Notes: generated by a model not told the origin, from the letters alone. A stretch of 64,000 nt of DNA from an uncultured Rivularia sp. (GCA_963665115.1 OY762007.1:2016001-2080000), one strand, 5' to 3'. Shown: positions 1,786 to 20,407, counted from the stretch's first letter. Made by a program: numbers and translations.

Positions 1786-1820
1786 TTGAAACAAATTATC
1801 AAGATACTGTATAATTACTG
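1786..1820 (+). promoter_or_regulatory. Putative sigma70-type promoter, copy 1
   Basis: TTGAAA-N18-TATAAT; the -10 lies in 19-mer AGATACTGTATAATTACTG, repeated at 2618-2636. Confidence 0.5.
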
Positions 1821-2332
1821 ACAAGAATGTAAATAGTTTTCTCAACAGTTAAAAAAAATATGTGTCGCAAGCTTCTTCCAAGACTTGCTATCTGTTGAGA
1901 AGAGTATTTATACGTTTAATGTCAAGATATTATAAAGTTAATATCAAGATATTGTGAAGTACTAAGTAAAGGTATTGTTACCTGGTCGCAAGCATTGTTA
2001 ACATTTCGATATGTAAAAAAAAATACAAAGGGAGGAGCAATTATTTAAGGTCTGCTAAAGTACAGTTGAACATAGTTAATGTTTTGTTAACTCTGATGAG
2101 AGAAATATCGGTTCTCCTCATTATGCTTAAACAGCTTTAATGGTATTCAGACCTAACTATAGTTTTCACTTTGCTTTAAATTAAAATTATGCATTTGAGA
2201 TGATTTACAAAGTTCCAAACTTTGTATGTTTGCATCTTTATTGAAAATTTGATGCGTAATCATTTAGTCAATGTATTTTTGTATTCTTAATTGCATTTTA
2301 AGACAATCAATTTACGTTTTCATTCTTGAGTT

Positions 2333-2418
2333 GGGCTTTGACGGTCTAGTGGATCTCAGTCCCTCTGAAACTGTCTTGTATTAATGCTGTAAGTTGATTA
2401 TTACAGCAGTAATGAGGG
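2333..2418 (+). ncRNA. Structured RNA motif copy 1 (30-nt hairpin plus downstream stem)
   Basis: GGGCTTTGACGGTCTAGTGGATCTCAGTCC is 26/30 identical to 2967-2996; followed by TGCTGTAA/TTACAGCA stem enclosed by CCCTC/GAGGG. Confidence 0.55.
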
Positions 2419-2601
2419 TATGATTTTAAATAGATATCCGTAGTGATGAAATCCAAGCGTAGTATATTTACGATCTCAAATGAAAACGGCAATAAAGAAT
2501 ATTATTAATTGGCATTGCTAAAAGAGATTGAGGCTTATTTGATTTGAAAATATTGCAAAATTGATAATTTATATTTCATGCATTTATCACGAATAAATTG
2601 C

Positions 2602-2636
2602 TTGCAAAGAAATATACAGATACTGTATGATTACTG
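2602..2636 (+). promoter_or_regulatory. Putative sigma70-type promoter, copy 2
   Basis: TTGCAA-N18-TATGAT; 18/19 match to 1802-1820. Confidence 0.5.
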
Positions 2637-2966
2637 TAAATAATTTTTTTTGGGATTATAAAGAAGCACCAAAAAACTAAATTGGTACATACAAAAATTA
2701 GGAAGGGAAGCTTATGTCTTATGACTGAGATTAGGTATAGATTACCATTTTTTGAATACTAATTCAATTGCATTTATCTGTACTATTAATGAAATTGAGA
2801 TGCTTGATTAATTTTAAGATAGGAGCAGTAAAATCTTGAACGGAAGAACAGTTTTAGTTTGGTAAATCCCTCGAGAAGAAGGCACTTAGCAAATAAATAT
2901 CTTAAGCTGCGTTCGGGATAGTCAAATATGACAATCGAAACATTGCATTAATTTTGAGCGGGAATG

Positions 2967-3207
2967 GGGCTTCGATGGTCTAATGGATCTCAGCCCTTTC
3001 GCGAGCCTTTGCTGTATTTTTGCGAGCAGAAAAGGTTGAATAATATCTTCTGTATGGAGTATAAATTATAAAATTGCGTGCATCTGCTTTCCGTCTGAGT
3101 AAAAAGTTAAGTTAGGCGTATTCCTTAACTTAAGTGTAAGAAGCCTGCCTAGTTGGAATTTATTCAAATGCAGCTTCTTTAAAGACGTATAGTTATCGGA
3201 TGAAAGT
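2967..3207 (+). ncRNA. Structured RNA motif copy 2 plus multi-stem leader reaching the start codon
   Basis: GGGCTTCGATGGTCTAATGGATCTCAGCCC hairpin; further stems 3004-3037, 3104-3131, 3138-3179 and enclosing 3086-3098/3196-3207. Confidence 0.55.
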
Positions 3208-3660
3208 ATGTGTATGAAAGATTTTAAATTGCTTAAAAGATGCGATCGCAATCGAAAGCGTTCTAAGAGAAGGGCTATATACTGCCCCGTTCATGGGTGC
3301 TATTTACACAGCGTCAGCCAAAAATATAGATTATTTTCTTCCTGCCCCAGACAACTTCAACAAAAAGGAATAGGACGACAGAATGCCAAAATATTGATAG
3401 CAAGTCAAACCGCAGTAGTTTTAGAAGATGAATGGTTAGAAGCATTTTGGTGCGATGAATGTCAGCAAACAAAATGGTATAGAGTTGAAAAGCTTGGTAA
3501 AAATTCGGACAAAAATGCTGGTCAAACTTCATATTCGATCTCTTTAGCACCAACTCAATTATGGGAACAAGCTATAGGAGTAGATGAAGCCAGAGGTAAT
3601 CCCAGTGTTAGCGAATTTACTCGCAGACATGCACGAATGGCGAGCTATGAAAATCTCTGA
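3208..3660 (+). CDS. Hypothetical protein with Arg-rich N-terminus and putative Zn ligands
   Basis: 150 aa; KRCDRNRKRSKRR, CPVHGC, WCDEC, C-terminal GNPSVSEFTRR; first ORF of the EPS cluster; exact start uncertain. Confidence 0.8.
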   Translation: MCMKDFKLLKRCDRNRKRSKRRAIYCPVHGCYLHSVSQKYRLFSSCPRQLQQKGIGRQNAKILIASQTAVVLEDEWLEAFWCDECQQTKWYRVEKLGKNSDKNAGQTSYSISLAPTQLWEQAIGVDEARGNPSVSEFTRRHARMASYENL

Positions 3661-3860
3661 AAATCGTGCATTAGAATTCACCTAAGAAGTTTGAAGGAAC
3701 AGTTCAAGATTCAAATAAGACAAATATTTTTCATCAGGGTTTAACTTAGTAACTAATTTGATATATGCTAGCTTCATTCAACTTCTTGAATTCTAGGAAC
3801 AGCAGATTAATATAATCTGAAATATTGTTAAATAGGGCATAAGGCATAAGAGGTGTTACT

Positions 3861-5374
3861 TTGAACAGGAATCCGTTTGTAAAGTTAAAAAACGGGAAAA
3901 TAGTTAGCGTTGAACATCCAACAACAGCTTCTTTTAACGAAACCCCAGCTAACACGAAAAAAAGGCAAGTAGTGCCCAAAGTGTCAGGAATATTTTATAT
4001 ACTTACCTTGATATTAGTGAATGCGGGTATTTGGAGTGGAGCTTTAATGTATTTAGCTACAGCCAAACCAAAATATATCAGTGAATGGGCAGTTAACATT
4101 CCTGGTAGTGGTTCAACCTCTAATATCAACCTTCCCGATATTGGACAAGCAACATCCCAAAACTATTCAGCTTATGCCGGAGCAAATTACGATCCTAGAG
4201 AAAACTATAAGGCGATCGCCACCAGCGATCAAGTATTAAAAGCTGCCGCTAGAATCGTGAATATGCCACCAAAAAAGTTTGGCAAGCCGCGAGTTAAAAC
4301 AGTTGACAATACATCCTTAATGAGGTTTGAGCTTAAAGGTTCCAATCCTCAAATAGCAAGAAGAAAATCTATAGCTTTACAGAATACATTTGAAGCTAAA
4401 TTAGAGCAGTTAAGAAACGAAGAAATAGCTCAGCAAAGAGTACGCTTAGAAAATGGGATGGAAGCGTCGCGGCGAAATTTAAAAACTGCTCAAAGACGGC
4501 TTAGTAATTTTAAAGCTGCTTCGGGTTTAAATTCCGAAGAACAACTGAAAAGTATGGCAATTAATATCGAAGAGTTACGCAGACAGCGTAGCGAACTAGC
4601 AGCCCAACAGCAACAGTCCCCCAGGCTCAGGTTTCGGAATTATCCGATAATCTAAGTTTGTCTTCCAACCAAGCTTCCAATGCTTTTGTTTTGCAAGCCG
4701 ATCAACTTTTTCAGAATTATTTGAAAAGTTATAGCGAAGCCAATAGCGATTTAATCAAAGCCAGCGCCAAATTAACTAAGATCCATCCAACGGTTATTAA
4801 CCTCCAAACAGAGCAGCAAGCAGCCCAAATTGCTCTTTTGGACAGAGCGCAAGCCCTTTTGAACCGTCCGATAAGTATGTCGTTAGTTAATAGACTTAAC
4901 TTCAGTAATAATGAATCGTCTGGTTCTAAACGCGCTATTCTGTCAGAGCAATTGGTGACAACAAACGTCGCAAAGCAAGGAATAAAGGCTCAAGTGAATT
5001 CTTTAGACTCACTAATTCCTCAGCTAGAAGATAGGTTAAAAAAATTATCGCAGCAGCAGTCCATCATGGAGGACATAAGACGAGACGTACAGGTTGCCGA
5101 AGCAGTATTTTCATCAACTATTGCAAAATTAGACTTGGCAAAAACCAGCGTTTCTTCTTCTTATCCAGAAATTCAGATTCTTGCCACACCCAGTTTACCA
5201 GAAGAGGCATCCGGACCGAGAACAACCTTGGTTTTGCTAGGTGCAACATTAGGCTCTTTATTCTTTAGTAGTGGAATTATTGGATTATGGAGAGCTAAAC
5301 TGCAACAGCAAAAACAAGAAAAACACCTTCAAGAATATATAGAATACCCGGAATTTGTAGAAGATCATTACTAA
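3861..5374 (+). CDS. GumC/Wzc-like polysaccharide chain-length/export protein, no kinase domain; frameshift at ~4620
   Basis: N- and C-terminal TM helices around a long coiled coil, IQILATPSLP before the last TM; two ORFs join across the C5 run 4618-4622. Confidence 0.85.
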
Positions 5375-5377
5375 AGC

Positions 5378-6638
5378 ATGAAACCCCAAAACTTTGAAGA
5401 AAGTTTAATTTGGTACGTACTTATCGGCACCTATGGTATCTACGCATTAGGATTAGTGTTTCCCGTTTATTCGGCATTGGCATGGGTATTAAGTGGATAT
5501 TTAGTTTTTAAAATTTTGCTGCAAACTAAAAAAACTCCACCCGAAGAAAGAATTCGTATTCCGTGGATAACATGGCTGTGGGGAATTTGTTCGCTAATTA
5601 CTTTAGTGGCAACTTATGCCGGTATTACAGATTTTAATTTGGGAAGAACTGCTCTTTTAAGAGCCATTTTAGGTTGGTTGATGAGTACGGCAGTCATACC
5701 CTTGTTTCTCCTCTGCGGCTGCTTAAATATCAGACCAAAACTTATTTATCGAGCGGTATGTATATTATGCTTGCAAAGTTTAATCGCAATTCCGATTGCT
5801 TATGCAGCCTATGCCGCAAATCTACCAGGTATTCTTTATACATCTCCCATTGAAAGATTGATTCAAAATGGACCGATTTTTTATAACGTCGGATTTTACA
5901 CGTCAGATTATGGCATTGATAACGTTCGTTTGTTTTTGTTTACTCCCTGGTGTCCGGCTTTAGGGTCTTGTTAGCAATGTGTTCTTTTTTATGGTGCTGC
6001 AAGAGTCAAATAAAAAATGGAGATACATTGGCATAGTTGGCGCGATCGCGATGAATATTGTATCCCTTTCACGAGCCGCTGTTGTTTGTCTACCACTAGT
6101 ACTAATTATTATTTGGGGTTTGAAAAACTTTACTAATCCGAAGATGCAAATTGCTGCTGGAATTGCTAGTTTCATTGCCGGGATTTTTAGTACCTCACTG
6201 ACAAATGCTGCTACAGATTTTGTCGATACATTCTACAGTTCGAGAGCCGATTCTTCAAGAGTTCGGGCTGCTTTACAAAGAGTAGGAATAGAGGGTTGGA
6301 AAGAATCTCCTATCTGGGGTCATGGAACTCAAAAACCTGGGCCACCAGTGCTGGCAAATTTACCAATTGGTTCTCATCATACCTGGGTAGGACTCTTGTA
6401 TACGAAAGGATTAGTTGGCTTCATGGCTTTACTAATACCTGTGTTATGGAGTTTTATTGAATTAGTTCTCAAGGCTCGTCATAGTAAACTTGCCGAAACA
6501 TCTTTGAGCATTTTACTTGTACTTCTGATATTCTCTTTTGGAGAACAAATAGATGTTTTAGGGTATATTTGTTGGCCTGGTTTAATAACTATGGGAATTG
6601 CCTTCAAACAAAAATTTTCTCATCCTATTTCCGCTTAG
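5378..6638 (+). CDS. O-antigen ligase/Wzy-like polymerase; frameshift at ~5964
   Basis: Multi-TM; SLSRAA, PIWGHG, GSHHTWVGLLY; removing one G at 5963-5965 fuses the ORFs. Confidence 0.85.
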
Positions 6639-6894: not shown

Positions 6895-8193
6895 ATGATA
6901 ATTGAAAAGATTAGGCAACAGTTGTCAAACCAATTCATTCGTAATATTGGTTGGCTTGGAGGTGCCGAATTAATAAATCGTGTATTCCGTTTAGGAGCAA
7001 CAGTAGTGCTAGCCCGCGCTCTGAGTCCCCAAGACTACGGATTAGCGGCAGTTGTTTTAACTATAAATGAATTTACAACAGTTTTTACCCTCAGAGCCGG
7101 AATTGGGGGCAAAATTGTTCAAGCTGATGAAGAAGATGTAGAAGTCTTTTGCAATACAGCCTACTGGTTAAATTGGATTTTATGCATTTCATTATTTTTA
7201 ATTCAATGCATTGCGGCTTTTCCTATTGCATGGTTTTATAACGAAGAAAAACTAATATTACCACTTTGCGTATACAGTTTAGTCTACTTAATGTTACCGT
7301 TTTTCGCCGTTCATAATGCATTGATAGATAGAGCCAATAGACTAAAAATCACGGCAATAAGTACGGCAATTCAGTCAATGTTGAATAACATTCTTATTCC
7401 AGCATTGGCGCTTTCGGGTATGGGTATGTGGGCTTTAGTATTACCTGGGCTTTTTACAACTCCAGTATGGATAGTAGTTACCCATCTTAATGAACCTTGG
7501 CGACCTAAAATGTCTTTTACTCTTAAAAGATGGAAAGAAATAGTTTATTTTGGGAAAGACATACTCGGTTATGAATTATTAGAAAAATTCCGGTCAAATA
7601 TTGACTATTTATTAGTGGGAAGAATTCTGGGAGTTGAAGCTTTAGGAATTTACTTTTTTGCATTTAATGCTGGTTTAGGTATCAGTCTAAATGTTATAAA
7701 TATCATGGTTTGGCCGCTTTACCCTCATCTTTGTGCTGCCAGAAATAACTTTGATGAATTTAAACACAAATATTTTCACAGTCTCAAAACCATCGGCTTG
7801 GTGATAATTCCTTTAGTTATTCTTCAGTCGAGTTTAGCTCCATTTTACGTACCGATTGTTTTTGGTGAAAAGTGGACAATGGCTGTGCCCATATTGGTAA
7901 TAATTTGCCTTTCTGCTTTACCCCGCCCTTTCGGTACAGCAGCGGCTTTATTACTACAATCTCTAGATAAAGCTTGGATTAATTTGCGCTGGAGCGTACT
8001 ATTTACTGCAATATTTCTTACTTCATTATTAATTGGTATGAATTGGGGAATTTATGGAGTAGCAGTATCCGTATTAGTTTCTCACGCAATCGCAATGCCA
8101 ATGTTTACCGTTTGGGCAACAAAATTTGTATTCGCCAAGGATTCGGTAGTGTTTAAGCGATCAAAGCGAAAGATCGAGTCTTCTAATCGTTAA
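6895..8193 (+). CDS. wzx: Wzx-type polysaccharide flippase
   Basis: VLARALSPQDYG, IDYLLVGRILGVEALGIY, many TM segments. Confidence 0.9.
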   Translation: MIIEKIRQQLSNQFIRNIGWLGGAELINRVFRLGATVVLARALSPQDYGLAAVVLTINEFTTVFTLRAGIGGKIVQADEEDVEVFCNTAYWLNWILCISLFLIQCIAAFPIAWFYNEEKLILPLCVYSLVYLMLPFFAVHNALIDRANRLKITAISTAIQSMLNNILIPALALSGMGMWALVLPGLFTTPVWIVVTHLNEPWRPKMSFTLKRWKEIVYFGKDILGYELLEKFRSNIDYLLVGRILGVEALGIYFFAFNAGLGISLNVINIMVWPLYPHLCAARNNFDEFKHKYFHSLKTIGLVIIPLVILQSSLAPFYVPIVFGEKWTMAVPILVIICLSALPRPFGTAAALLLQSLDKAWINLRWSVLFTAIFLTSLLIGMNWGIYGVAVSVLVSHAIAMPMFTVWATKFVFAKDSVVFKRSKRKIESSNR

Positions 8194-8309: not shown

Positions 8310-9252
8310 ATGAGTTCAGCATTTACAGTAGTTATGCCAGCTTACAACGCTGCTGCATATCTATCACAAACAATCGAATCAGTCTTAAGTCAAACCTTTA
8401 CTAATTTTGAACTAATAATTATCGATGATGGTTCTACAGATGATACTACTGCGATCGCCGATAAGTACCAAAAAATAGATAATAGAGTAAAAGTTTTATG
8501 TCAATCCAACCAAGGAGTATCGGCAACTCGTAATAAAGGAATTAATCTTTCTAAATCCAAATACATTGCTTTTATTGATGCAGATGATAAATGGTTCCCC
8601 GAAAACTTAAAGTTCCATTTTGAGCATTTGGAAAAAAATCCTCATTTAGGTGTTAGCTATGCAAAAGTAGAATTTTTACATCCAGACGGAAACCATACTG
8701 GAAAAATTGCTAGGGGGACGTTTAACCAAACTACAACCTCAGCATTTGTTGTATGAAAATCCCACGATGACAGTATCAAATATCGTGGTTCGTCGGCAAG
8801 TATTTGAGGAAATCGGCTGCTTTGATTGCACCATGAGCTATTCAGAAGATATGGATTTTCTGTTTCGGGTTGCCTGTAGCCCTTGGGAAATTGAAGGAAT
8901 CGACAAAGTATTATTGGGGTATAGAACAACACACGGAGGACTATCGTCGCAGCTTTACAAAATGGAAGAGGGTTGGGAAACTTTGATGAATAAAGCTAGA
9001 GCAAAGGCACCCGAGCTAATCGATCAACATTATAGTAAAGCTAGAAGCAATCATCTGCGATACCTTGCCCGTAGAGCTTTCCGCTTGCGTCTTTCCCCTA
9101 AGATTGGAGTTAATTTTTTAAATCGGGCATTAAGCTCAGATTGGCGATTAGTAATAAGAGAACCAGGGACAACTCTGGTTACAATCGTAGCAGTTTATGG
9201 GGCTCAGATTCTAGAATATGTAAACTTACGTAAATTTTCTCCATCAGTGTAA
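8310..9252 (+). CDS. Glycosyltransferase family 2; frameshift at ~8715
   Basis: VVMPAYN, IIDDGSTD, FIDADD, SEDMD; extra G in run 8713-8717. Confidence 0.88.
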
Positions 9253-9354
9253 AGATTAGATGAAAGTTTTATTTAATTTACATATGTTTGCTAAATAGCA
9301 GATTTCATAAAGTATCATTTATTACTGGAGGCATCTTGTAGAAAATGAACTAAC

Positions 9355-10359
9355 ATGAAAATATGCTATTTGATTCAGACTTATAAGAATCCAGAACAAA
9401 TATACAGACTTGTCAAATTAATTAAGAATACAACTTCCAATTCATTTATAGTTGTTAGTCATAATTTTAATAGCTGTAATTTAAATATCAGCTTATTCAA
9501 AAAACTAAAGAATGTTGAAGTAATTCCTAATAATGGAGTGATGATGGGTAGCTTCGGCATTATCCAAGGTTTTTTTGATGCTATTGGTTGGCTATTAAAT
9601 CAAAAGATTCAATTTGACTGGCTAATTAATTTAACAGGTCAAGATTACCCCACCCAACCTCTTTGCAAAGTTGAAAATCTTTTAGCGAATACAAACTATG
9701 ATGGTTTTGTAGAGTATTATGACGTTTATTCCAAGCAAAGTCCCTGGAGTAAAAAAGTAGTAAATACCAGATATTTATACAGTTATAAACATTTTAAAGA
9801 ATACTTATCGCCTCGGCAAAAGTATATGTTAAGACCGATTAAATATATAGTTAACAATTGCCAGCCTTTTGTTCGACTAGATTATTCTTATGGATTGATA
9901 GTTGGATTTAAAAACTTCTATAAATTCTTCGACAAAGATTTTATTTGCTATGGGGGTTCTTATTTTAGTACAATTTCTCAAAAATGCGCGATTTATCTGT
10001 ATGAGTTTGTTCGAGAAAATACCCAAATTATGGACTATTACAAAAAAACTTTTATTCCGGAAGAGTCTTTATTACAAACCATTTTAGTGAATAGTAAACA
10101 ATTCAAATTGTACAACAATAATTTTCGCTATACTGATTTTGCTAGTAGCCGTCACGGACATCCACGCATACTAACTAGCAAAGATTTCCCGGCGTTAACA
10201 CAAGATAATATTTATTTTGCTCGTAAGTTTGATATGAATGTAGACAGCACAATCTTAGATAAACTCGATCGCAGAACACTTACAGATAAAGTGATTGATA
10301 TACCTCCGACTAAATTTAGAATTGAGGAGAATAATTTCATACAATCAATCAAACAATAA
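9355..10359 (+). CDS. GT14 (core-2/I-branching) glycosyltransferase
   Basis: CYLIQTYKNPEQ, LTGQDYP, GGSYF, PEES..QT, FARKFD. Confidence 0.88.
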   Translation: MKICYLIQTYKNPEQIYRLVKLIKNTTSNSFIVVSHNFNSCNLNISLFKKLKNVEVIPNNGVMMGSFGIIQGFFDAIGWLLNQKIQFDWLINLTGQDYPTQPLCKVENLLANTNYDGFVEYYDVYSKQSPWSKKVVNTRYLYSYKHFKEYLSPRQKYMLRPIKYIVNNCQPFVRLDYSYGLIVGFKNFYKFFDKDFICYGGSYFSTISQKCAIYLYEFVRENTQIMDYYKKTFIPEESLLQTILVNSKQFKLYNNNFRYTDFASSRHGHPRILTSKDFPALTQDNIYFARKFDMNVDSTILDKLDRRTLTDKVIDIPPTKFRIEENNFIQSIKQ

Positions 10360-10394
10360 TATTTGATTTGTCACCGTTAATTATAATTAAAATA

Positions 10395-10425
10395 GCCCCC
10401 TTTATTACGAAGTAATGGGGGTTTT
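10395..10425 (+). terminator. Putative intrinsic terminator inside the EPS cluster
   Basis: GCCCCC-TTT-ATTAC-GAA-GTAAT-GGGGGT followed by T-run, 35 nt after the GT14 stop. Confidence 0.55.
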
Positions 10426-10623
10426 GAAGTCTCTATTCAAAAATCCAGGAATACTTAATTCTTGGGAACATTCCAATTTTGCAAAAAGTCCTCAGATTAT
10501 AAGCGTGGGGTAAAATATTTGTTCAGAATTGGGATACTCGCTAATTATTTTTTAATTATTATCGATGATATTTCCGTTACAATTAGCTATAAAACATTTA
10601 CAACTAATAATGGAAGTAAAAAA

Positions 10624-11556
10624 ATGAAACCTTGTTATTTGATTATGAGCCATAAAGATCCAGAACAAATCTATCGGCTTGTCTACACTATCAAAAAGCT
10701 TAGCCCCAATTCTCATATTCTATTAAGTCATGATTCGACAAATTGTAGCTTAGATGTATCAACTTTTAAAAAATTATCTGGAGTTGATGTCCAATTTGCG
10801 ACAGCAGAAAGAGCAGATTTTTCTCTAATTAACAAGTATTTTTGGGCTATTAATTACTTATTCAGTAATAATATAGATTTTGATTGGTTGATAACTCTTT
10901 CTGCCCAAGATTATCCAACTCAGCCCCTTTCAGAACTTGAGTTTTTGCTATCTACCACGGAATACGATGGCTTTTTAGAATTTTTCAAAGTTTTTAGTCC
11001 AGAAAGTGCGTGGAGTATTAAGGATGGCTCTCAGAGATATTTGTATAAATATAAAAAGCTGCTTTCATCTATACCTAAACCAATCAGAACAATACTGAAG
11101 GTACTCAAAGTTTTTAATTATTCACAACCTTTTTTCAGACTTGATTTTTCATATGGTTTGAGGCTTGGTATTAAACAGAAGTCTATATTTAATGATAATT
11201 TCAATTGTTATGGAGGTTCATTCTTTTCTATTTTATCTATGAAATGCGTGAAATACTTGAATGATTTTTATCAAAATAATCGTCAGATAGTTGAATATTA
11301 TAAATATGTTTTAGTCTCTGATGAAAGTTTTCTCCAAACTGTTTTAGTTAATAGCAATCAATTTAATCTACACAATGAATGCAAACACTATTATGATTTT
11401 TCTGATACTAGCTACGGGCATCCAGCAATATTAACAGAAAAAGATCATCATGCCATGATCCAAAAAAAATATTATTTTGCTCGCAAATTTGATATTAAGC
11501 TAGATAGCAATATTTTAGATATTTTAGACCAAGAATTTTTACTAAAAGTTAACTAA
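10624..11556 (+). CDS. Second GT14 glycosyltransferase (tandem paralog)
   Basis: MKPCYLIMSHKDPEQ, LSAQDYP, DESFLQT, FARKFD; ATG 10624 aligns with the paralog start. Confidence 0.88.
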   Translation: MKPCYLIMSHKDPEQIYRLVYTIKKLSPNSHILLSHDSTNCSLDVSTFKKLSGVDVQFATAERADFSLINKYFWAINYLFSNNIDFDWLITLSAQDYPTQPLSELEFLLSTTEYDGFLEFFKVFSPESAWSIKDGSQRYLYKYKKLLSSIPKPIRTILKVLKVFNYSQPFFRLDFSYGLRLGIKQKSIFNDNFNCYGGSFFSILSMKCVKYLNDFYQNNRQIVEYYKYVLVSDESFLQTVLVNSNQFNLHNECKHYYDFSDTSYGHPAILTEKDHHAMIQKKYYFARKFDIKLDSNILDILDQEFLLKVN

Positions 11557-11715
11557 TATTTTTTAGTTCGCTTTGTAAATTTGTTAGATTTATTTTTTCT
11601 CTGTTCCCTATTTCCATATCCAGTCTTTGCTCTTTTTCAACTATTTAATTAGCATATTAGTAAGAAAATAAACTTTATTCCATAGTTAATAATTAATCAT
11701 TAGGTCAAGATTATA

Positions 11716-12690
11716 ATGCCAAAAGTATCAGTTATCGTACCAGCTTACAACGGTCAAAGTACAATTTTAGAAACAATTAATTCTGTTTTACAGCAAAGTT
11801 TTACAGACTTTGAATTAATTGTAATCAATGATGGTTCTACCGATGGCACTTTGGAACTGTTATCAAATATAAAAGATGCCAGATTAAAAGTTTATTCTTA
11901 TAAGAATGGAGGTTTACCAGCAGCCCGAAATCGCGGTATAGTTCGTGCCACGGGAGAATTTTTATCTTTTATAGACGCTGATGATTTATGGACACCTGAT
12001 AAATTAGAGTTGCAACTTCAGGCTTTACAACAAAATCCTCAAGCAGGAGTTGCTTACAGTTGGACGATTTGTATGGGAAATAATGGAAATTTATTTCACC
12101 CCGGTGTATCTGAAAGTTTTCAAGGTAATGTTTACCCCGATTTACTAGTAGGTAACTTTATTGGCAGTGGATCGAATGTTTTAGTTCGTAGAGAAGCAAT
12201 TGAATCGGTAGGCTATTTTGATGAGAGCTTGAAGTCATGCGAAGACTGGGATTACTGGTTGCGATTAGCACCGAAATGGGAGTTCGCAGTTGTTCCTAAA
12301 CCTCAAATTATTTATCGATTATCTTCGGGGGCTATGTCAAGCAAGCTCGATGTGATGGAAAAATATCAAACTTTGGTTTTAGAAAGAGCTTTTGCATCGG
12401 CACCTTTAGAACTTCAGCCTTTAAAGAATCGAGGTTTTGCTTATATTTATTTATTTATGACACGACTTTACTTGAGTCGGGCTAATGATGCAAAAGTTGT
12501 TAAACAAGCCACTCAAAAATTATGGAAAGCTATTCGTTTTTCCCCGAAAATATTATTAAGTAAAGAGGCTCAGCTTTTATCAATTAAACTAATCATATTA
12601 CGAATACTTTCTCCAAAAATTGCTTCTAGGTTTTTAAACAGAAGTGTTACTGTTCGTAACGTTGCCGATCCCAGGTTACAAACTAGCTAA
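11716..12690 (+). CDS. Glycosyltransferase family 2
   Basis: VSVIVPAYN, INDGSTD, FIDADD, CEDWDYWLR. Confidence 0.92.
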   Translation: MPKVSVIVPAYNGQSTILETINSVLQQSFTDFELIVINDGSTDGTLELLSNIKDARLKVYSYKNGGLPAARNRGIVRATGEFLSFIDADDLWTPDKLELQLQALQQNPQAGVAYSWTICMGNNGNLFHPGVSESFQGNVYPDLLVGNFIGSGSNVLVRREAIESVGYFDESLKSCEDWDYWLRLAPKWEFAVVPKPQIIYRLSSGAMSSKLDVMEKYQTLVLERAFASAPLELQPLKNRGFAYIYLFMTRLYLSRANDAKVVKQATQKLWKAIRFSPKILLSKEAQLLSIKLIILRILSPKIASRFLNRSVTVRNVADPRLQTS

Positions 12691-13007
12691 TTTATAAATT
12701 TAAAGTTATGAGTTAAGAGTTAAGAGCAAAATGTATTTAGAAGTAAATTGCTTTTTTCTCTGACTAGAGTCAAATACAGTCCTTTATAAACTTAAATGGC
12801 AAAATGCATGAAACATTTTAATAAGCGAACTGTACTCTATTGAATTTACCTCAATTCCTAACATGATTTATTGATATTGCTTCTTCTAGCAATCCCATTT
12901 TTTTTCTACTGTCTCTCTAAAAACTAAAGATATTTAATCGAACTAAATTCTGTTAGTATTTGAATTACTACCAGTTTTTTTTGTGCCATTACATCTATCA
13001 AACCACT

Positions 13008-14058
13008 ATGAATCATCAACAAATGAACAAAAAAGTATCGGTGATTATTCCGCTGTATAATGCAGAGAAATATATCGGCAGAACCCTACAATCTGTTTTA
13101 AATCAAACATATGAGAATCTAGAAATTATCATTGTCGATGATGAATCACCCGATCGCAGCGTTAAAATTTGCGAGCAGTTTAGTGACTCCAGAATTAAAA
13201 TTTTACATCAAAAAAATCGAGGCTTACCTGGTTCTAGAAATACGGGTATCCGTCATGCTAGCGGCGATTATATCGCATTTATAGATGCCGATGATATTTG
13301 GTTGCCAGAAAAGTTAGCAAAGCATATCGCTCATTTGGAAAGTCATCCAGATGTGGGAGTAAGTTTTAGTCGTTCTGCTTTTATCGATGAAACAGATAGA
13401 CCCTTTAGGTATTTATCAAATTACTAAGCTTCAAGATATTACTCCTCTCGATATTCTTTGTCGCAGTCCAATTGGAAATGGTTCTGCTGCGGTTTTCAGA
13501 AAAGCTGTTTTTGAAGATATCAAGTTTCAAAAGAATCTTTATGGTTATGTAGAAGATTATTATTTTGACGATACTTTTACGCTCTCTGAAGATATTGAAT
13601 GTTGGATCAGAATCGCGATTCAAACTAACTGGAAATTTGCAGGTATTGCTCAACCATTAACTCTTTACAGAATTAATTCTAATGGTCTCTCAGCTAATCT
13701 TCAGCAGATGATTAACTATAGAGAACAGGTTTTTGAAAAAGCTTCCTCTTATGCTCCAGAACAAATGGCGCGTTGGTTAAAACCTGCAAGAGCTTATCAT
13801 TTAAGGTACGTTGCAAGAAGGGCTATAACTATTAATAAAGGAATTTTTGCGTTGAAACTTATGTGCCGTTCGATTGTGAATTACTGGCCAATTATTATAG
13901 AAGATTTTCAGCGTACCTTTGAAACTATTGCTGCTGCTATTTTACTTTGCGTTGTACCGAAGCCTGTATACGAGAAAGTTAAATTGTTCGCTTTGAAGAT
14001 AATCGGAAATTTGCAACAGAAAAGTATTAATAAAGATAAATTGAGTGAAGCATCATAA
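13008..14058 (+). CDS. Glycosyltransferase family 2; frameshift at ~13402
   Basis: VSVIIPLYN, FIDADD, SEDIECWIR; extra C at 13401-13403. Confidence 0.87.
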
Positions 14059-14155
14059 AAAAAAGTGATCTTATAAAGTCTATAGATGTGAGATGGCTGC
14101 TAGTTTTTACCTGCAAAAATCGCCCGTTGCTTATCGAAATTACCAATCAACCAAT

Positions 14156-14488
14156 ATGCAAACTAAACTTCTAAGCCCTAGATGTACGGTGGTAGAACCT
14201 CAAAATTCAATTACAGCCGCAAACGCTTATTTGTTTGAAAGAAAACTAGCTACAGCATTAAGAAAAAACTCTCATTCCAAATTATTAGTCGATCTAAAAC
14301 AAGTGGAACATATAGATAGTGCTGGGTTGATGGCATTAATATCTAGCTGCAAATTAGCTCAAAGTTTACAAACACGCTTTAGCCTTTGCTCAGTTTCCCC
14401 TTCCTTAAAAATTGTCATTGAACTAACTCAGCTCGATCGCGTATTAGAGATATTTGAGTCTAAAGCCAAATATACAGAATCGCTGTAG
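14156..14488 (+). CDS. STAS-domain anti-sigma factor antagonist
   Basis: VDLKQVEHIDSAGL, ELTQLDRVLEIF; start could also be 14093. Confidence 0.88.
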   Translation: MQTKLLSPRCTVVEPQNSITAANAYLFERKLATALRKNSHSKLLVDLKQVEHIDSAGLMALISSCKLAQSLQTRFSLCSVSPSLKIVIELTQLDRVLEIFESKAKYTESL

Positions 14489-14512
14489 TACAGATATCTA
14501 GCTATTTAAAAA

Positions 14513-16673
14513 ATGCGTTTTTTCAATCTACTTAATCGTCGTCAGCAGCGAATATTTGGCATCGCCTTTATCGTACTAGCTACATTTTTTGTTTCGTTTT
14601 CCTTTAATTCCAATCAAGCTGTTCGCAATATATCCCAACAAATTACTGTAGCCAAAGCTCGTTCTCAACAGTATCCTTCTTTAGGTACTGCGAATGTTGC
14701 CATCGGTGGGGGAGGTTATGTAACTGGAATTTACCTTCATCCAAAAGAGCGTAATTTAGTTTATATAAAAACCGATATTGGTGGTTTTTATCGGTGGAAT
14801 CCCGCGAATTCAACTTGGATACCGCTTAACGAACAGTTTTCCTTGGCTAATAGCAACTACTACGGAGGAGAAGCTTTAGCGCTTGACCCTAAAGACCCTA
14901 ATATTGTATACATTGCTGTAGGGAAATATACTGCCGATTGGTGGCAGTCTCAAGGAACAATTCTCAAATCTTTAGATAGAGGCAGAACTTGGACTAAGCT
15001 AAATCTGGATTTGAAGATGGGTGGCAACGAATCACAAAGATGGACTGGTGAAAGATTAGCGGTTAATCCTTTCAACTCTAAAAATCTATTTTTTGGTTCT
15101 CGTCAAGATGGGTTGTGGAAGTCAGACAATGGTGGCCAAAGTTGGGCTAAAGTCAAATCATTTCCCATACTCAATGACGATATTGGCATCAACGCTATTA
15201 CTTTTGATAGATACAAAAAAGGCACTATCTATGGATTAGCTCATAAAAATGGAATATATAAATCGATTGATACGGGTAAAACGTGGAATAAAATTTCACA
15301 AAGTCTTGCCGAAGTCAACCGTATCGCCATAGGAAATGAGGATACTTTATATGTAACTCATGCCGGGGGTGTTAGTAAATTTGTTAACGGTAGTTGGAAA
15401 GATATTACCCCTCAACAAAACAAATTAGCTTTTAATGCTGTTAGCGTTAATCCTAAAAATAGGGAAGATGTTATGGTTGCTACCTATAGTGACTCATATA
15501 CACAGATATTCCATTCTTTTGATGGTGGAAGTAAATGGACTCAGCAGAAACGGCAAGCCAATAATACAGTTTCGTGGTGGTCTGACTATATGAAGTCAAA
15601 ACCTTCCGTAGCCAGTATCGAATTTGACCCTTGGAATGCAAGTAGGGTTTGGTTAACAGACTGGTATGGGATATGGCGAACTGATAATATCAATCGCAAT
15701 CCAGTTGTGTGGACAAATTATCAACGGGGACATGAAGAGATTGTCACCTTTACGTTGGTTGCAACACCCTCGGGAGCATTAATCAGCGGTTTAGCAGATG
15801 TTGAAGGATTTTACCATGACCGGGGACTAAATGCTTATCCGTCGAAAATGTTGAGTAGCAAACCTCATGATTTTCAAGACACTTACAGCATTGCTTACAG
15901 CCAAAAAAGTCCTTTAAAAATGGTGCGAGTGGGGGGGAATCGTCATAACAATACTTATAGCGGCGCAACTTCTAGCGATGGTGGAAAAACTTGGGAGAAG
16001 TTTTCCAGTTTTCCCAAGAATCAATTGGCGACGCGAGTAGCCATGTCTGCAACCGATCCCAATTTATTTGTTGTTACCCTCAGCGGTACTCAACCTCTGC
16101 GAACAACGGATGGCGGTGCTTCTTGGCTTCCGGTTTCTGGTTTACCCAATGGATTTGAGGGAAATTGGAATTGGACGCAACCTTTAGTAGCAGACAAAGT
16201 TGACGGCAATACGTTTTACTATTACGCCGATGGAAAAGTTTATCGCAGCAGTAACGGTGGTAAATCTTTTGAAGTCGTTTCTGAATCGTTACCCCATGCA
16301 GATTGGCACTCTTTAAAAACTGTTTCAGGAGTTAAAGGTGAATTATGGCTGAGTCTGGACGATCGAGGGACTTTACCGCTCAACCGATGGAGGAAATAAT
16401 TTTACCCGAATTAAAGGAGTAAATAGAGCATATTTGATTGCATTAGGCAAGCCTAAAACTGGAAATAAAGGTAATGCATTATATCTATATGGAGAAATTG
16501 CTAACCAAGGAAAAGGTATATTTCGTTCTTTAAATAATGGACAAATTTGGCAGCGAATAGGCGATAAAAACAAACCTATCGGTAACGATCCAAACGTAAT
16601 GGAAGCTAGTTCCACAGAGTTTGGTTTAGTTTTTATTGGCACCAACGGTAGAGGCATTTACTACGGTAAATAG
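14513..16673 (+). CDS. Exported GH74 (xyloglucanase-like) beta-propeller protein; frameshift at ~16368
   Basis: N-terminal hydrophobic segment, GGGGYVTGI..HP, TDIGG, Asp-box repeats S.D.G.TW, SGLADVEG, C-terminal GTNGRGIYYG. Confidence 0.8.
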
Positions 16674-16713: not shown

Positions 16714-17523
16714 ATGACTACAAATAACGTCTGCATCCACCAATTTGATGAAGTCGAATTACTTGGCACTAAGTTTCATAAAGTCAGAGTCCAAGAATTA
16801 ATTAATTTTATTGTTAGCTCAGCAGGTATTGATAAAAAAACCCTAGTCGGGAATGTCAACGTTCGAGCAATGAATTTTGCTTGCGAAATGCCTTGGTACA
16901 AAGATTTTATTAACAGATCGGATTTAGTCTTTTGCGATGGATTTGGCGTATTATTAGGTGCCAAAATGTGCGGTTGTGGGATAAATTCGGAACATCGTAT
17001 GACTTGCCCCGACTACATAGAAAACTTGGCTTCCGCTTGCGAACGAGAGAATGTTTCGCTGTATTTGCTTGCAGGTAAGCCTGGTGTTGTCGATAAAGCA
17101 ATTGAGAAGTTGCAAGTTATTGCACCCAAATTAAATGTAAAAGGACATCATGGTTACTTTCATAAATCTGGCATAGAAAATGAATACGTTGTTAATGAAA
17201 TTAATCAGTTTAAGCCAGATGTATTATATGTTGGCTTCGGAATGCCATTGCAAGAACGTTGGATAATTGATAATTTTGACCGAATTGATGCAAAAGTGTT
17301 TCTACCTTTGGGTGCTTGCTTAGACTTTTATACGGGTGCAGTATATCGTGGTCCCCGCTGGATGACTAATCGCGGACTTGAATGGTTATCCCGAATATTT
17401 ACCGAACCAAAAAGATTGTGGCAACGTTACGTTATAGGTAATCCGCTGTTTTTCTACCGTCTTCTCAAAGAACGCTTCGTAAAACTTTTTAAGAAGGGCA
17501 GTAAAGCGTCTTCAACATATTAA
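16714..17523 (+). CDS. WecB/TagA/CpsF (GT26) glycosyltransferase
   Basis: DLVFCDGFG, HHGYF, VGFGMPLQERW, GLEWLSRIFTEPKRLWQRY. Confidence 0.93.
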   Translation: MTTNNVCIHQFDEVELLGTKFHKVRVQELINFIVSSAGIDKKTLVGNVNVRAMNFACEMPWYKDFINRSDLVFCDGFGVLLGAKMCGCGINSEHRMTCPDYIENLASACERENVSLYLLAGKPGVVDKAIEKLQVIAPKLNVKGHHGYFHKSGIENEYVVNEINQFKPDVLYVGFGMPLQERWIIDNFDRIDAKVFLPLGACLDFYTGAVYRGPRWMTNRGLEWLSRIFTEPKRLWQRYVIGNPLFFYRLLKERFVKLFKKGSKASSTY

Positions 17524-17824
17524 GATAGATTGCATTTTTTTATCAAATTAACTCGATCGCTTTTAGTTAATTTGATATTAAATCTATTAACCGAAGAAAA
17601 TGTTTTATTTTACTTTTGAAGCAAAATAAAAAATAGCAAAACATCGATACAATACGGGTATTTATCAAAGCTTAAAAAATATTAAAATTTGGAAATAACT
17701 TTTTGATATTTTTCAAATAGCTATATGCAAATCTTGTCAGTGAATGAAGCAAGATTTAATATCCCTGAATTTAGCAATTTATAACAATCATGCGAACAGT
17801 GTTTATAGAGGTGTAATACTAATT

Positions 17825-19252
17825 ATGGCTTATCGTTCTCTACCAGGAGTAAATTTTCGACCTGACTTAAGATCGGCTAAAGGTGCAAACTTAAGAAAAG
17901 GAATTACAATCAGATTCCTTCGAGTTGTAACTCTTGTTTCATCAGATGTAATTGCTCTAAGTTTAGCGTGGACTTTAGCAATAAATTTCGGCACGTTTTT
18001 AGAATCAGCTTGGACGAAAAAGCCTTCATTTATCCTACTAATCCTGATAGTTGGCATTGGTATGATTGCAACTAAGGGTTTATATTTGCCCGGTATTTAT
18101 CGTCGTAATTATGCTGCGTTAATAAAAGCCGTTACCCTTTCAGAAATTTTATTACTATTAATTGCTTTCCTGTACGAACCAGATGGTTACGTTTCCCGGT
18201 CTAGCTTTTTAATATTTTGGCTACTATCGGTAACTTTTACCTGCACGGGACGCTTGATATTTGATTTTTCAACTAAACTATTGCGTAAAAAAGGGGCAAT
18301 TCGCTATCCCATTTTTGTGATTACCGATCCAGACGACAGAGACGATTATATCAAGTTTATTCAGAAGGAAAATTGTTATACTCTCGAAGGTATTGCTGAC
18401 TCAGAAAGTCTGGATAGAGAGAATAGAGAAGCAACCTTTGATTTTCTAAAACAACAAGGTATAGTTGAGACTTTTGTTTCTTGGAATGCAATTAAGAATC
18501 GCCTATATATTTGCTGGCATTTCCAAACTGCTGGTATTACTTTACGAATTTTGCCAACAACCGATCGCATTTATCATCCCAAATCAACACTTTGGAAAAT
18601 TGGTAATATTCCTTGTTTAACAATTCCCGCACCAATTATTGCAGGTAGCGACTTTTGGATTAAACGGTGTTTCGACCTTTGTTGTTCGATTATTTTATTA
18701 ATGCTGTTTTCACCTTTATATCTGTTAATTTCTTTACTTATTAAATTAGATTCTCCCGGTCCAATATTTTTTAGACAAGAGCGAATTGGTTTACACTGTA
18801 AGAAATTTAAAATTTGGAAATTCCGCACGATGGTAACGAATGCGGAAAAATTACAGGCAAACTTGGAAGCTAAAAATGAAATAAAAGATGGGGTTCTGTT
18901 TAAAATGAAAGATGACCCCCGGATTACAAAAATTGGTAAGTTTCTACGTCTTTACAGCTTGGATGAATTACCTCAATTATTCAATGTGTTATTAGGTGAT
19001 ATGAGTTTAGTTGGTCCTCGCCCTCTTCCTGTAAGAGATGTTGAAAAATTTCTAACACCGCACTTTATTCGACAAGAAGTTTTACCAGGCATTACAGGTT
19101 TGTGGCAAGTTTCAGGTCGTTCTAACATCGAAAAATTTGAAGATGCAGTCAAATTAGATATTAGTTACATTGAGAACTGGTCTATCCTTTTGGATATGAG
19201 AATTTTACTGCAAACAGTACGAGTTGTTTTGCAAAAAACGGGTGCTTATTAA
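17825..19252 (+). CDS. Priming undecaprenyl-phosphate sugar transferase (WcaJ/CpsE-like)
   Basis: N-terminal TMs; KFRTM, DDPRIT, SLDELPQLFNVL.GDMSLVGPRP, PGITGLWQVSGR. Confidence 0.93.
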   Translation: MAYRSLPGVNFRPDLRSAKGANLRKGITIRFLRVVTLVSSDVIALSLAWTLAINFGTFLESAWTKKPSFILLILIVGIGMIATKGLYLPGIYRRNYAALIKAVTLSEILLLLIAFLYEPDGYVSRSSFLIFWLLSVTFTCTGRLIFDFSTKLLRKKGAIRYPIFVITDPDDRDDYIKFIQKENCYTLEGIADSESLDRENREATFDFLKQQGIVETFVSWNAIKNRLYICWHFQTAGITLRILPTTDRIYHPKSTLWKIGNIPCLTIPAPIIAGSDFWIKRCFDLCCSIILLMLFSPLYLLISLLIKLDSPGPIFFRQERIGLHCKKFKIWKFRTMVTNAEKLQANLEAKNEIKDGVLFKMKDDPRITKIGKFLRLYSLDELPQLFNVLLGDMSLVGPRPLPVRDVEKFLTPHFIRQEVLPGITGLWQVSGRSNIEKFEDAVKLDISYIENWSILLDMRILLQTVRVVLQKTGAY

Positions 19253-19690
19253 TAAGTCATATTTCCATCGGGGAGAGAGTTTTGATCTTAATTACTACTC
19301 CCCGTAACAAATGAAGGCGAAAAAACTTTTTAGTATAGCTTGCGACATTTAATTTTGTGCTATATGATTTAGATATAAAATATTAACTAATTCACAAATT
19401 TATCATTATATTTTTGTTGATATCAAACAAGGGCTTTTGTATTAATTATTATTTGACGGAATAAAAATAATGGTTTTAATGTTTATCTATGAATATTTAT
19501 AAATTATTTATATTTTTTCTTCATAATGGAAAATAATTGGATAGTATATAAAAAAATCAATAATAATGAATAATTTCTATATATATCTATTTACTTATCG
19601 ATAAAAATTAAATATTTAAATTTTGTTATATAAGTCTATTTTTTCAATAGACCTACATGATAATTGACTTGAGTTATAAGGGTCATCAGG

Positions 19691-20407
19691 ATGATAAAAA
19701 GTAATAGCTTCAGTAGAATATCTTTAAAAGAAAGATTGCTCACTACCATTTTCGGTGGTATTCCGAATCTTTTTTTAGGTAAAAAATTAAGGAATTTGGT
19801 ATATCGAAGCCTTTTGAATCGGATAGGTAAATCTGTTAATATTCAACATTTTGTAGAGCTTATTGGAACTCCTTGGATTGAAATTGGTAATCAGGTAAGT
19901 CTTTTGAAAGGAGTGCAAATTAATGCTTTAGGGCATCCAAATAATAAGGTACATATAAAAGATCGAGCTAGATTAGAACGCGGTGTAGATATTCGCTCGC
20001 TGCACGATACACATATAATAATTGACGAAAATGCATATATCGGTCCCTATGTCACTATTAGCGGTACGGGAGATATAAAAATTGGTAAAAACTGCTTAAT
20101 TGCACCACATTGTGGAATATTCGCGAACAATCATATTTTTACAGATCCGACTCGAACTATTGAAGAACAAGGTACAACTCGTCAGGGAATTGTAATTGAA
20201 GATGACTGTTGGTTAGGGCATAACGTTACGGTATTAGATGGAGTGATTATTGGAAAAGGAAGTATTATTGGTGCGGGTTCCGTTGTTAATAAGAGCATTC
20301 CTCCCTTTTCTATCGCAGTAGGTACACCAGCAAGAATTATTAGAAATCGTCTTGATAGAGAAACACCAAACTTCTCATCACAACTATCATCAAAAATTCC
20401 AACCTAG
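19691..20407 (+). CDS. Hexapeptide-repeat acyltransferase
   Basis: IVIEDDCWLGHNVTVLDGVIIGKGSIIGAGSVV, GTPARII. Confidence 0.9.
   Translation: MIKSNSFSRISLKERLLTTIFGGIPNLFLGKKLRNLVYRSLLNRIGKSVNIQHFVELIGTPWIEIGNQVSLLKGVQINALGHPNNKVHIKDRARLERGVDIRSLHDTHIIIDENAYIGPYVTISGTGDIKIGKNCLIAPHCGIFANNHIFTDPTRTIEEQGTTRQGIVIEDDCWLGHNVTVLDGVIIGKGSIIGAGSVVNKSIPPFSIAVGTPARIIRNRLDRETPNFSSQLSSKIPT

Follow-up and report, generated by a model that had tools for sequence, protein, structure and literature searches.

An uncatalogued hairpin RNA element and its linked Arg-rich protein at cyanobacterial polysaccharide clusters: a candidate read-through system

Results

Organization of the locus

We analyzed a 64,000-nt stretch of the genome of an uncultured Rivularia sp. 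(the window), in which an ORF-free leader of 1.95 kb (30% GC) lies 3′ of aspS and is followed by a gene for a 150-aa protein and then by ~17 kb of co-oriented polysaccharide genes ending at 20407 (Table 1), a long gene run that an earlier note on this DNA had also described. That note had reported a 30-nt motif occurring twice in the leader, and we recovered both copies (26/30 identity) in the fold it had proposed (−8.3 kcal/mol for copy 1 and −11.0 kcal/mol for copy 2), each followed by a further stem-loop. Within the 8.69-Mb genome, the nearest other site to the copy 1 30-mer was more than 9 mismatches away, and copy 2 had two more sites, each at 9 mismatches. Taken singly the folds were unremarkable (z = −0.92 and −2.03), so the case for structure rests on comparative data. 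A promoter-like 43-nt repeat precedes each RNA copy, which suggests tandem duplication of a promoter-plus-RNA cassette in the leader.

Extra bases at 4618 in the wzc-like gene and at 5963 in wzy were missing from a DNA-run contig at full depth, showing that the gene splits at these positions are assembly errors, and further splits near 8756, 13427 and 16399 may be errors as well. The 150-aa ORF may start at ATG 3214 rather than at 3208, since close relatives are 148 aa long. A long imperfect inverted repeat (3674-3793, identified by eye) without a U-tract separates this gene from the wzc-like gene.

Table 1 Features of the window from the leader to the end of the polysaccharide genes
Position	Strand	Feature	Basis
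1786..1828	+	Promoter-like 43-nt repeat, copy a (TTGAAA-18-TATAAT), 5′ of RNA copy 1; putative function	77% identical to 2602-2644; 11/12 consensus match, a grade not above chance across the region
2328..2365	+	Hairpin P1 of RNA copy 1, core 2333-2362; an outer stem and a 5-bp stem, then a 2-nt bulge, 2 bp, a 1-nt bulge, 4-5 bp and a variable loop	Fold and covariation; 61.6 bits with model R1, a score that is not independent as R1 was built with this copy included
2370..2419	+	RNA element copy 1, second stem P2, variable interior	Folding and comparison
2602..2644	+	Promoter-like repeat, copy b (TTGCAA-18-TATGAT), 5′ of RNA copy 2	77% identical to copy a
2962..3000	+	RNA element copy 2, hairpin P1 (core 2967-2996)	50.8 bits with model R1; fold
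3004..3037	+	RNA element copy 2, second stem P2, base AGCCUUU/AAAGGUU	Folding and comparison
3043..3062	+	Tentative weak third hairpin of copy 2	−2.6 kcal/mol; stronger in close relatives such as L044
3208..3660	+	alr5224-family protein, 150 aa: N-terminal Arg-rich motif, predicted zinc site C26-x2-H29 + C82-x2-C85, WLE, NP(S/T)V(S/G)EF, pI 9.5	ORF, family alignment
3861..5374	+	Wzz/Wzc-like chain-length protein, split at 4618	Domain search
5378..6638	+	Wzy_C polymerase/ligase, split at 5963	Domain search
6895..8193	+	Wzx flippase	Domain search
8310..14058	+	Glycosyltransferase run; 9355-10359 is Pfam Branch/GT14, rest GT2- or GT14-like on sequence look	Domain scan for 9355-10359 alone
14093..16399 (embedded stretch to 16657)	+	STAS anti-sigma-antagonist-like protein and BNR-repeat glycosidase-like protein, embedded in polysaccharide cluster	Domain search
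16714..20407	+	WecG glycosyltransferase, priming sugar transferase, hexapeptide acetyltransferase	Domain search

The protein family

The window protein, in which 9 of 13 N-terminal residues of the Arg-rich stretch are K or R, was 97% identical to a homologue from Rivularia sp. and 60% identical to alr5224 of Nostoc PCC 7120. Searches returned 1,014 homologues at E ≤ 0.001, and the named ones among the 120 matches listed were all cyanobacterial; the family was present in 71 of 401 genomes of the phylum. A profile search against 1.84 billion representatives gave 112 matches, none of them a fused form (longest 217 aa). The motifs that the earlier note had read in the protein (KRCDRNRKRSKRR, CxxHxC and CxxC) are all present, the latter two as CPVHGC and CDEC, and RxRxRSKRR, C26-x2-H29, WLE, C82-x2-C85 and NPxVxEF are conserved family-wide, but the third cysteine of the CxxHxC motif (C31) is not kept in distant members, so that the predicted zinc site is likely CxxH plus CxxC.

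These sequences form an unannotated cyanobacterial family in which we recognized no known fold. The 150-aa protein had no match in Pfam or NCBIfam at E ≤ 0.1 and none among PHROGs or PDB sequences, and viral contigs gave one chance-like match. An AlphaFold model from 28 sequences (pLDDT 70.5) has a beta-sheet core with flanking helices. With a model at this pLDDT, Foldseek against PDB and BFVD gave no match at E ≤ 0.001 and the best VIA structural match had Z 5.2 (rmsd 3.2, 79 aligned), while the nearest named Atlas cluster, at 0.75–0.77, is a lead only.

Our literature search, with most subscription papers and bioRxiv supplements outside it, found no description of the element and no function for alr5224. 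The exact core 11-mer and the gene names were absent from the accessible part of the 327-sRNA table of PMC4734099, and PMC8632094 mentions cyanobacteria only in a reference. Listed as a hypothetical protein, alr5224 was reported to be up 3.3-fold, and alr5223 3.7-fold, in a sigJ-overexpressing strain in which polysaccharide genes were up (PMC2779892).

Structure and strand of the RNA element

The 30-nt repeat forms the core of a larger RNA element (motif 1), which lies on the sense strand, has several hairpins and is uncatalogued: Rfam 15, searched as the earlier note had proposed and with Cyano-2 included, had no match to motif 1 or in the window. The core stands as described, but the element is longer than the earlier note had it: an outer GGAG/CUCC stem encloses the core, a linker leads on to a second stem, the 3′ part is rich in purines, and the whole spans about 46–130 nt. 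The selection on RNA structure that had been suspected from the two window copies was evident across 102 distinct copies. The specified 15-pair structure was paired in 95.1% of cells (slid controls 37–53%), and two-sided changes numbered 24 compared with 7.2 in shuffles (0/500 as high), with 6 pairs changing on both sides. Four inner pairs had zero pairing-preserving changes, and RNAalifold, run unaided, retained only the 5-bp core. At the base of P2, one column showed a U-A/A-U swap in 15 copies and was paired in 120 of 138 (shuffled 94.8, maximum 105). The P1 loop varied in sequence and was 4, 5 or 6 nt long, a purine-rich GAAAA-type loop being confined to the tentative third hairpin. Folding z scores of the whole element were weak (mean −0.86 for gene-adjacent and −1.66 for detached copies, with mononucleotide shuffles and rough classes).

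All strong motif-1 matches were sense to the gene (122/122), and the G-U pairs of the motif were kept, alternating with A-U and G-C, a pattern that fits one strand only. Some database proteins start with translated hairpin sequence. We rejected a coding role for the hairpin, whether as N-terminal extension or leader peptide, because its frame relative to the gene was scattered (32/27/14) and its loop length varies. Contigs of one metatranscriptome sample (5–6% of words) span the gene of a relative as well as a hairpin copy whose flanks are unrelated; such contigs carry no strand or ends and do not establish transcription.

Linkage of RNA and protein

Collecting homologues of the protein, as the earlier note had suggested, linked the motif to the family: of 110 loci with a homologue, 104 had the hairpin next to the gene when searched with a two-part sequence pattern. 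Because related genomes are not independent, this and the following counts are not probabilities. We also assessed 151 genomes of the order (two draws with identical settings and family totals), of which R1 matched 32 and the protein profile 50. All 32 genomes with the RNA carried the main subfamily (called at ≥159 bits with the protein profile), and they made up 32 of the 35 genomes having it; motif 1 was found in 0 of 15 genomes with the divergent subfamily only and in 0 of 101 without the protein. One further, weaker motif-1 copy (29.6 bits) occurred in G564. Among 78 chosen genomes, RNA and gene copy numbers were often equal (3/3 in G164, 2/2 in G162 and G268), and six of seven gene-less genomes of the same family lacked the RNA, the exception being G098 with one weak copy (36.5 bits). 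Six genomes had the RNA on a different contig from the gene and no copy adjoining the gene, and five of these off-contig copies precede polysaccharide genes.

An RNA-first scan of metagenomes yielded 122 loci (113 distinct), with the gene downstream on the same strand in 66 and upstream in 5, other matches in 10 (mostly wzc, wza, wzm, ABC, glycosyltransferase, Uma2 or DUF4351 genes), no match within 300–900 nt in 29, and too little sequence in 3. Two metagenomic motif-1 copies lay in contigs of 62–63% GC, one of them before wza (L292, L305), and the range may extend to high-GC cyanobacteria or beyond.

A second protein–hairpin pair

A divergent subfamily (subfamily 2) forms one clade (support 100/100 in a 71-row tree), and one pairwise comparison with the window protein gave 34% identity. 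Its basic N-terminus differs from that of the main subfamily, its ligand order is mostly CxxC...CxxH, compared with CxxH...CxxC in the main subfamily, and its genes often head wecG, GT4, wzc or wzm genes. Cross-genus comparison of subfamily-2 flanks yielded motif 2, which has no match in Rfam and consists of an outer stem and a core whose 5′ side is interrupted by two bulges, of 2 nt and 1 nt, in the same bulge order as motif 1 but with a different sequence. Its 23 copies were 86.4% paired, with 51 two-sided changes (18.2 in shuffles) and 10 covarying pairs. Of 79 genomes, 13 had the exact motif-2 pattern. All 13 belong to the 19 genomes that carry subfamily 2 (3 of the 19 assigned by weak score alone), and the pattern was present in 0 of 60 others; one genome (G074) had both proteins and both RNAs. 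Eight motif-2 copies lay away from the gene, three before glycosyltransferases and the rest before DUF29, esterases, a carbohydrate-binding-like protein and DAHP synthase. Truncated subfamily-2 paralogues were observed directly 5′ of an ECF sigma factor and anti-sigma pair (L176, L177, L179).

As the two subfamilies each travel with a different hairpin, the protein likely binds its hairpin, and with the Arg-rich motif and the predicted zinc site also taken into account we consider such binding quite probable. Weighing against the strength of this pairing, the match between two subfamilies and two RNAs amounts to a single deep split. Some clades also keep the protein without a detectable RNA. 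Picocyanobacterial homologues retain the Arg-rich motif but had the element in 0 of 9 cases at E ≤ 0.01, and the non-coding parts of the 9 loci contained no third RNA; a third hairpin may lie elsewhere in these genomes. This protein clade, with no element found, sits just 3′ of psbEFLJ and convergent with a hisS-ugd-epimerase operon (L111-L119). Three homologues from a Synechocystis-size genus, located beside carotenoid genes, likewise keep the Arg-rich motif and had motif 1 in 0 of 3 at E ≤ 0.01 (best E 0.1). At L121-L123, the main subfamily is represented by a long-branch version whose gene is convergent with glycosyltransferase-coaX and cruF/ctaC; these loci had neither element nor polysaccharide cluster, and the protein has possibly changed function.

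Both RNA types carry a common purine-rich 3′ element, RCAG-RRAAR-BUGUG (score 10.4, compared with 8.5 in shuffles, maximum 9.1). This shared element, the multi-hairpin layout and the RNA-less protein clades would all suit an RNA that acts alone in cis on polymerase or senses a ligand, in the manner of HK022 put, EAR or a riboswitch, with the protein a co-regulated accessory rather than a binder; put is reported to be a double hairpin active without a dedicated protein (PMC8632103). Against this, the RNA never occurred without the matching subfamily in 151 genomes, even where the two lay on different contigs, and the sole exception was the weak G098 copy among the seven gene-less genomes of the same family; we hold this explanation to be improbable.

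Gene-adjacent and detached copies

In the common layout, the element starts about 85–115 nt 5′ of the codon for the conserved Cys12, and the gene's Shine–Dalgarno (SD) sequence, GGAGGU, which precedes a TTG or GTG start, is the 3′ arm of P2. P2 pairs with the SD of the gene itself in gene-adjacent copies (n = 60), where the SD was present in 56, a start codon 3–6 nt after the P2 arm in 60 and a fully paired base in 58. Detached copies (n = 78), with the next ORF up to 1588 nt off, had the SD in 17, the start codon in 23 and a full P2 base in 46, whereas P1 was kept in both classes (10.87 of 11 pairs in detached and 10.75 in adjacent copies). More than half of the distinct motif-1 copies lie far from any start. 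Both window copies belong to the detached class, and P2 of copy 2 is ~170 nt 5′ of the start, while in most other genomes the arm coincides with the SD. Detached copies bear a remnant of the first codons of the gene, so some of them may be passive duplicates.

Because detached copies keep P1 yet mostly lose the SD and start codon, a role in elongation is favored over its main rival, Com/mom-like or stability control. There, the same pair would act after transcription, binding would open or lock the SD stem, as in the Mu Com/mom case, and would protect cluster mRNAs or mark them for processing, with detached copies as stability or processing sites. The geometry of the adjacent copies fits this well, and so does the lack of terminator enrichment described below; the detached copies, among them both copies of the window, and the occurrence of up to 12 in-cluster copies in single genomes fit it poorly, and on balance we regard it as rather unlikely, though the most serious of the alternatives.

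Polysaccharide-cluster context

The tie of the RNA–protein module to polysaccharide clusters, drawn by the earlier note from a single locus, held at further loci: of 79 loci from named genomes that had an ORF downstream, 76 had a polysaccharide gene among the next three ORFs, with GT2 assigned by inspection. We fetched 20 stretches for extra copies, which contained 38 RNA copies; 18 stretches had co-oriented glycosyltransferase, flippase (wzx), wzm or sugar-nucleotide genes and the other two had an ABC exporter. The cluster that contains the gene can itself have several copies (3 in L139, 4 in L141), and in each of two genomes there were 12 weaker copies, mostly bunched in polysaccharide regions.

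Several further arrangements were observed. In polysaccharide clusters of G071 and G370, a variant hairpin with the outer stem GGTGC/GTACC forms tandem units with Uma2 or DUF4351 genes, at 12 copies per genome (L146, L147, L150), and in both genomes the protein gene has no adjacent RNA copy within 1.5 kb. Genes for Uma2, DUF29, DUF4351 and DUF2887 were repeatedly found directly 3′ of the element in polysaccharide clusters, as if riding its transcription (L131-L141, L193, L199). At L198, element and gene head a lasso-peptide-like cassette (PqqD, transglutaminase-like and asparagine-synthase genes) with an ABC exporter, within a polysaccharide region.

Copies recur as units together with Uma2, DUF29, DUF4351 and transposase genes, and they carry remnants of the gene's 5′ end. 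Both features could also reflect a DNA-level hairpin of the REP or attC kind on which the protein would act as an enzyme, and whose mobilization or recombination would help to rearrange polysaccharide clusters. This is the least probable of the explanations we weighed, given that there is usually one RNA copy per gene copy, that orientation is strictly sense, that the protein matches no enzyme in Pfam, NCBIfam, PHROGs or PDB and that viral contigs contributed a single chance-like match. Membership among REP/HUH transposases was rejected, as neither the HUH motif nor a catalytic tyrosine is conserved in the family, the Tyr of WYHV not being kept in subfamily 2.

Terminators and elongation factors

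Terminator-like sites between the gene and the next ORF were found at 9 of 109 loci, compared with 10 on the reverse strand and 5 in shuffles, and after detached motif-1 copies at 5 of 81, compared with 13 of 300 random windows; neither is an enrichment, and both argue against read-through. After motif 2, enrichment was modest (8/23 compared with 14/230), several sites were weak, and a stricter detector found 2 of 23. One NusG and no paralogue was present in 5/5 genomes, and no Rho scored over the cut-off in 5/5; we count the first result for a read-through role of the pair and the second against it.

The hairpin and U-tract that follow the eight motif-2 copies, and also two detached motif-1 copies (L124/L125), would be explained if the pair were repressive, with the protein on P1 favoring termination or a roadblock and so dampening polysaccharide output as negative feedback or an attenuator. 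The weak TTG/GTG start and the paired SD suggest that protein levels are kept low, as this would require. Most copies have no adjacent terminator, however, and the rise of alr5224 and alr5223 together with polysaccharide genes in the sigJ overexpressor, though weak evidence (PMC2779892), runs the other way, so that we hold repression to be very improbable.

Discussion

Motif 1 is a structured, sense-strand element restricted to genomes that bear the protein and repeated at and inside polysaccharide clusters. We give about an even chance to a read-through system of the N/boxB kind that is encoded by the host and also autoregulates its translation. In it, the Arg-rich motif and zinc module would read the bulged stem on nascent RNA, and the bound protein would modify the elongating RNA polymerase, allowing read-through of long AT-rich clusters; internal or distant copies would serve as reloading or in-trans sites, and the same binding, by way of the stem that pairs with the SD, would set how the mRNA of the protein itself is translated, with either sign. 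We infer elongation as the target because detached copies keep the hairpin without translation signals and far from starts, because copies recur in clusters crowded with Uma2, DUF29 and transposase insertions, and because the elements sit where other bacteria use RfaH/JUMPstart, UpxY or EAR at polysaccharide clusters (PMC7819879, PMC2864571). Besides the terminator counts, the N-like part of this reading is weakened by the predicted fold of the protein (pLDDT 70.5), and the read-through pair by the protein clades in which no RNA was detectable. A fuller proposal, somewhat short of even and thus more tentative, is that cyanobacteria, in which neither Rho nor a NusG paralogue was detected in the five genomes searched, evolved their own processive read-through for EPS and O-antigen clusters, in which a zinc/Arg-rich chromosomal protein of a new family is loaded via a double-bulged hairpin, reloaded at internal copies and controls its own translation, with at least two orthogonal pairs able to coexist in one cell.

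Cyanobacterial polysaccharide clusters (15–25 kb) govern sheaths, biofilms, desiccation tolerance and phage receptors. The finding supplies a named gene (alr5224 in Nostoc PCC 7120, a strain amenable to laboratory work) and a defined RNA site, so that the expression of such clusters is directly testable. Rfam 15 contains neither of the two covarying RNA families described here, and the unannotated protein family, with more than 1,000 sequences, gains a candidate function. Should the two pairs prove orthogonal, they would also offer cyanobacterial engineering natural parts with which to switch long operons.

The earlier note had likened the element to Cyano-2 (RF01702), which is also an orphan cyanobacterial multi-stem RNA in a long gene-free region. 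This likeness did not survive: the Cyano-2 sequence is different, and its model was blank in the window at the gathering score and at E ≤ 10 and in 0 of 30 genomes including the window's own. As a positive control the same model matched 5 of 121 genomes, from only one picocyanobacterial genus; none of those 5 had the alr5224 protein, by a profile matching 50 of 151 genomes, and the motif-1 model had no match in the Cyano-2 loci.

N/boxB pairs are phage-specific, and the two alr5224 subfamilies with their different hairpins resemble them in this respect, as does, at the sequence level, the conserved N-terminal RxRxRSKRR with regard to lambda N/nut. Lambda N is reported to place an N-terminal Arg-rich motif on boxB and to be unstructured (PMC8632103), whereas the alr5224 protein is predicted to be folded with a zinc site. 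The alr5224 system is also chromosomal and cyanobacterial where N is phage-borne, and P1 is conserved in its bulged stem with a variable loop of 4–6 nt, unlike the conserved GNRA-like loop of boxB. Homology to N found no support among PHROG or PDB sequences, and the family is not phage-borne, with its one chance-like viral contig.

With Mu Com, a zinc-finger protein reported to bind a hairpin beside a stem that hides the mom translation start (PMC6483171), the family shares a small basic protein with a predicted four-ligand zinc site (CxxH...CxxC for the main subfamily and, for most of subfamily 2, CxxC...CxxH). A hairpin beside a start-hiding stem was present in 56 of 60 adjacent copies, 17 of 78 detached copies and neither window copy. 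Here the hidden start belongs to the gene of the protein itself, over half of the distinct copies are remote from starts, and there is no homology.

EAR and JUMPstart are reported to mark polysaccharide operons and to alter elongation (PMC2864571). As with RfaH/ops (JUMPstart), UpxY and LoaP, a short element lies upstream of many polysaccharide clusters per genome and the regulator gene is often first in the cluster. JUMPstart (RF01707) had no match in the window, and the alr5224-linked element differs from ops in being an RNA structure of about 46–130 nt; this is probably too long for a non-template DNA hairpin in the bubble. The protein itself was rejected as a NusG paralogue, having no NGN or KOW domain (no Pfam or NCBIfam match at E ≤ 0.1) in genomes with a single NusG elsewhere. 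EAR (epsC motif, RF01735) and HK022 put are likewise multi-hairpin RNAs in or before exopolysaccharide operons with reported antitermination; the RF01735 model matched neither motif 1 nor motif 2, and motif 1 differs from both in being paired with a dedicated, co-varying protein. The system is built from uncatalogued parts, and most likely works like N/boxB or the RfaH/UpxY/EAR systems while belonging to none of them.
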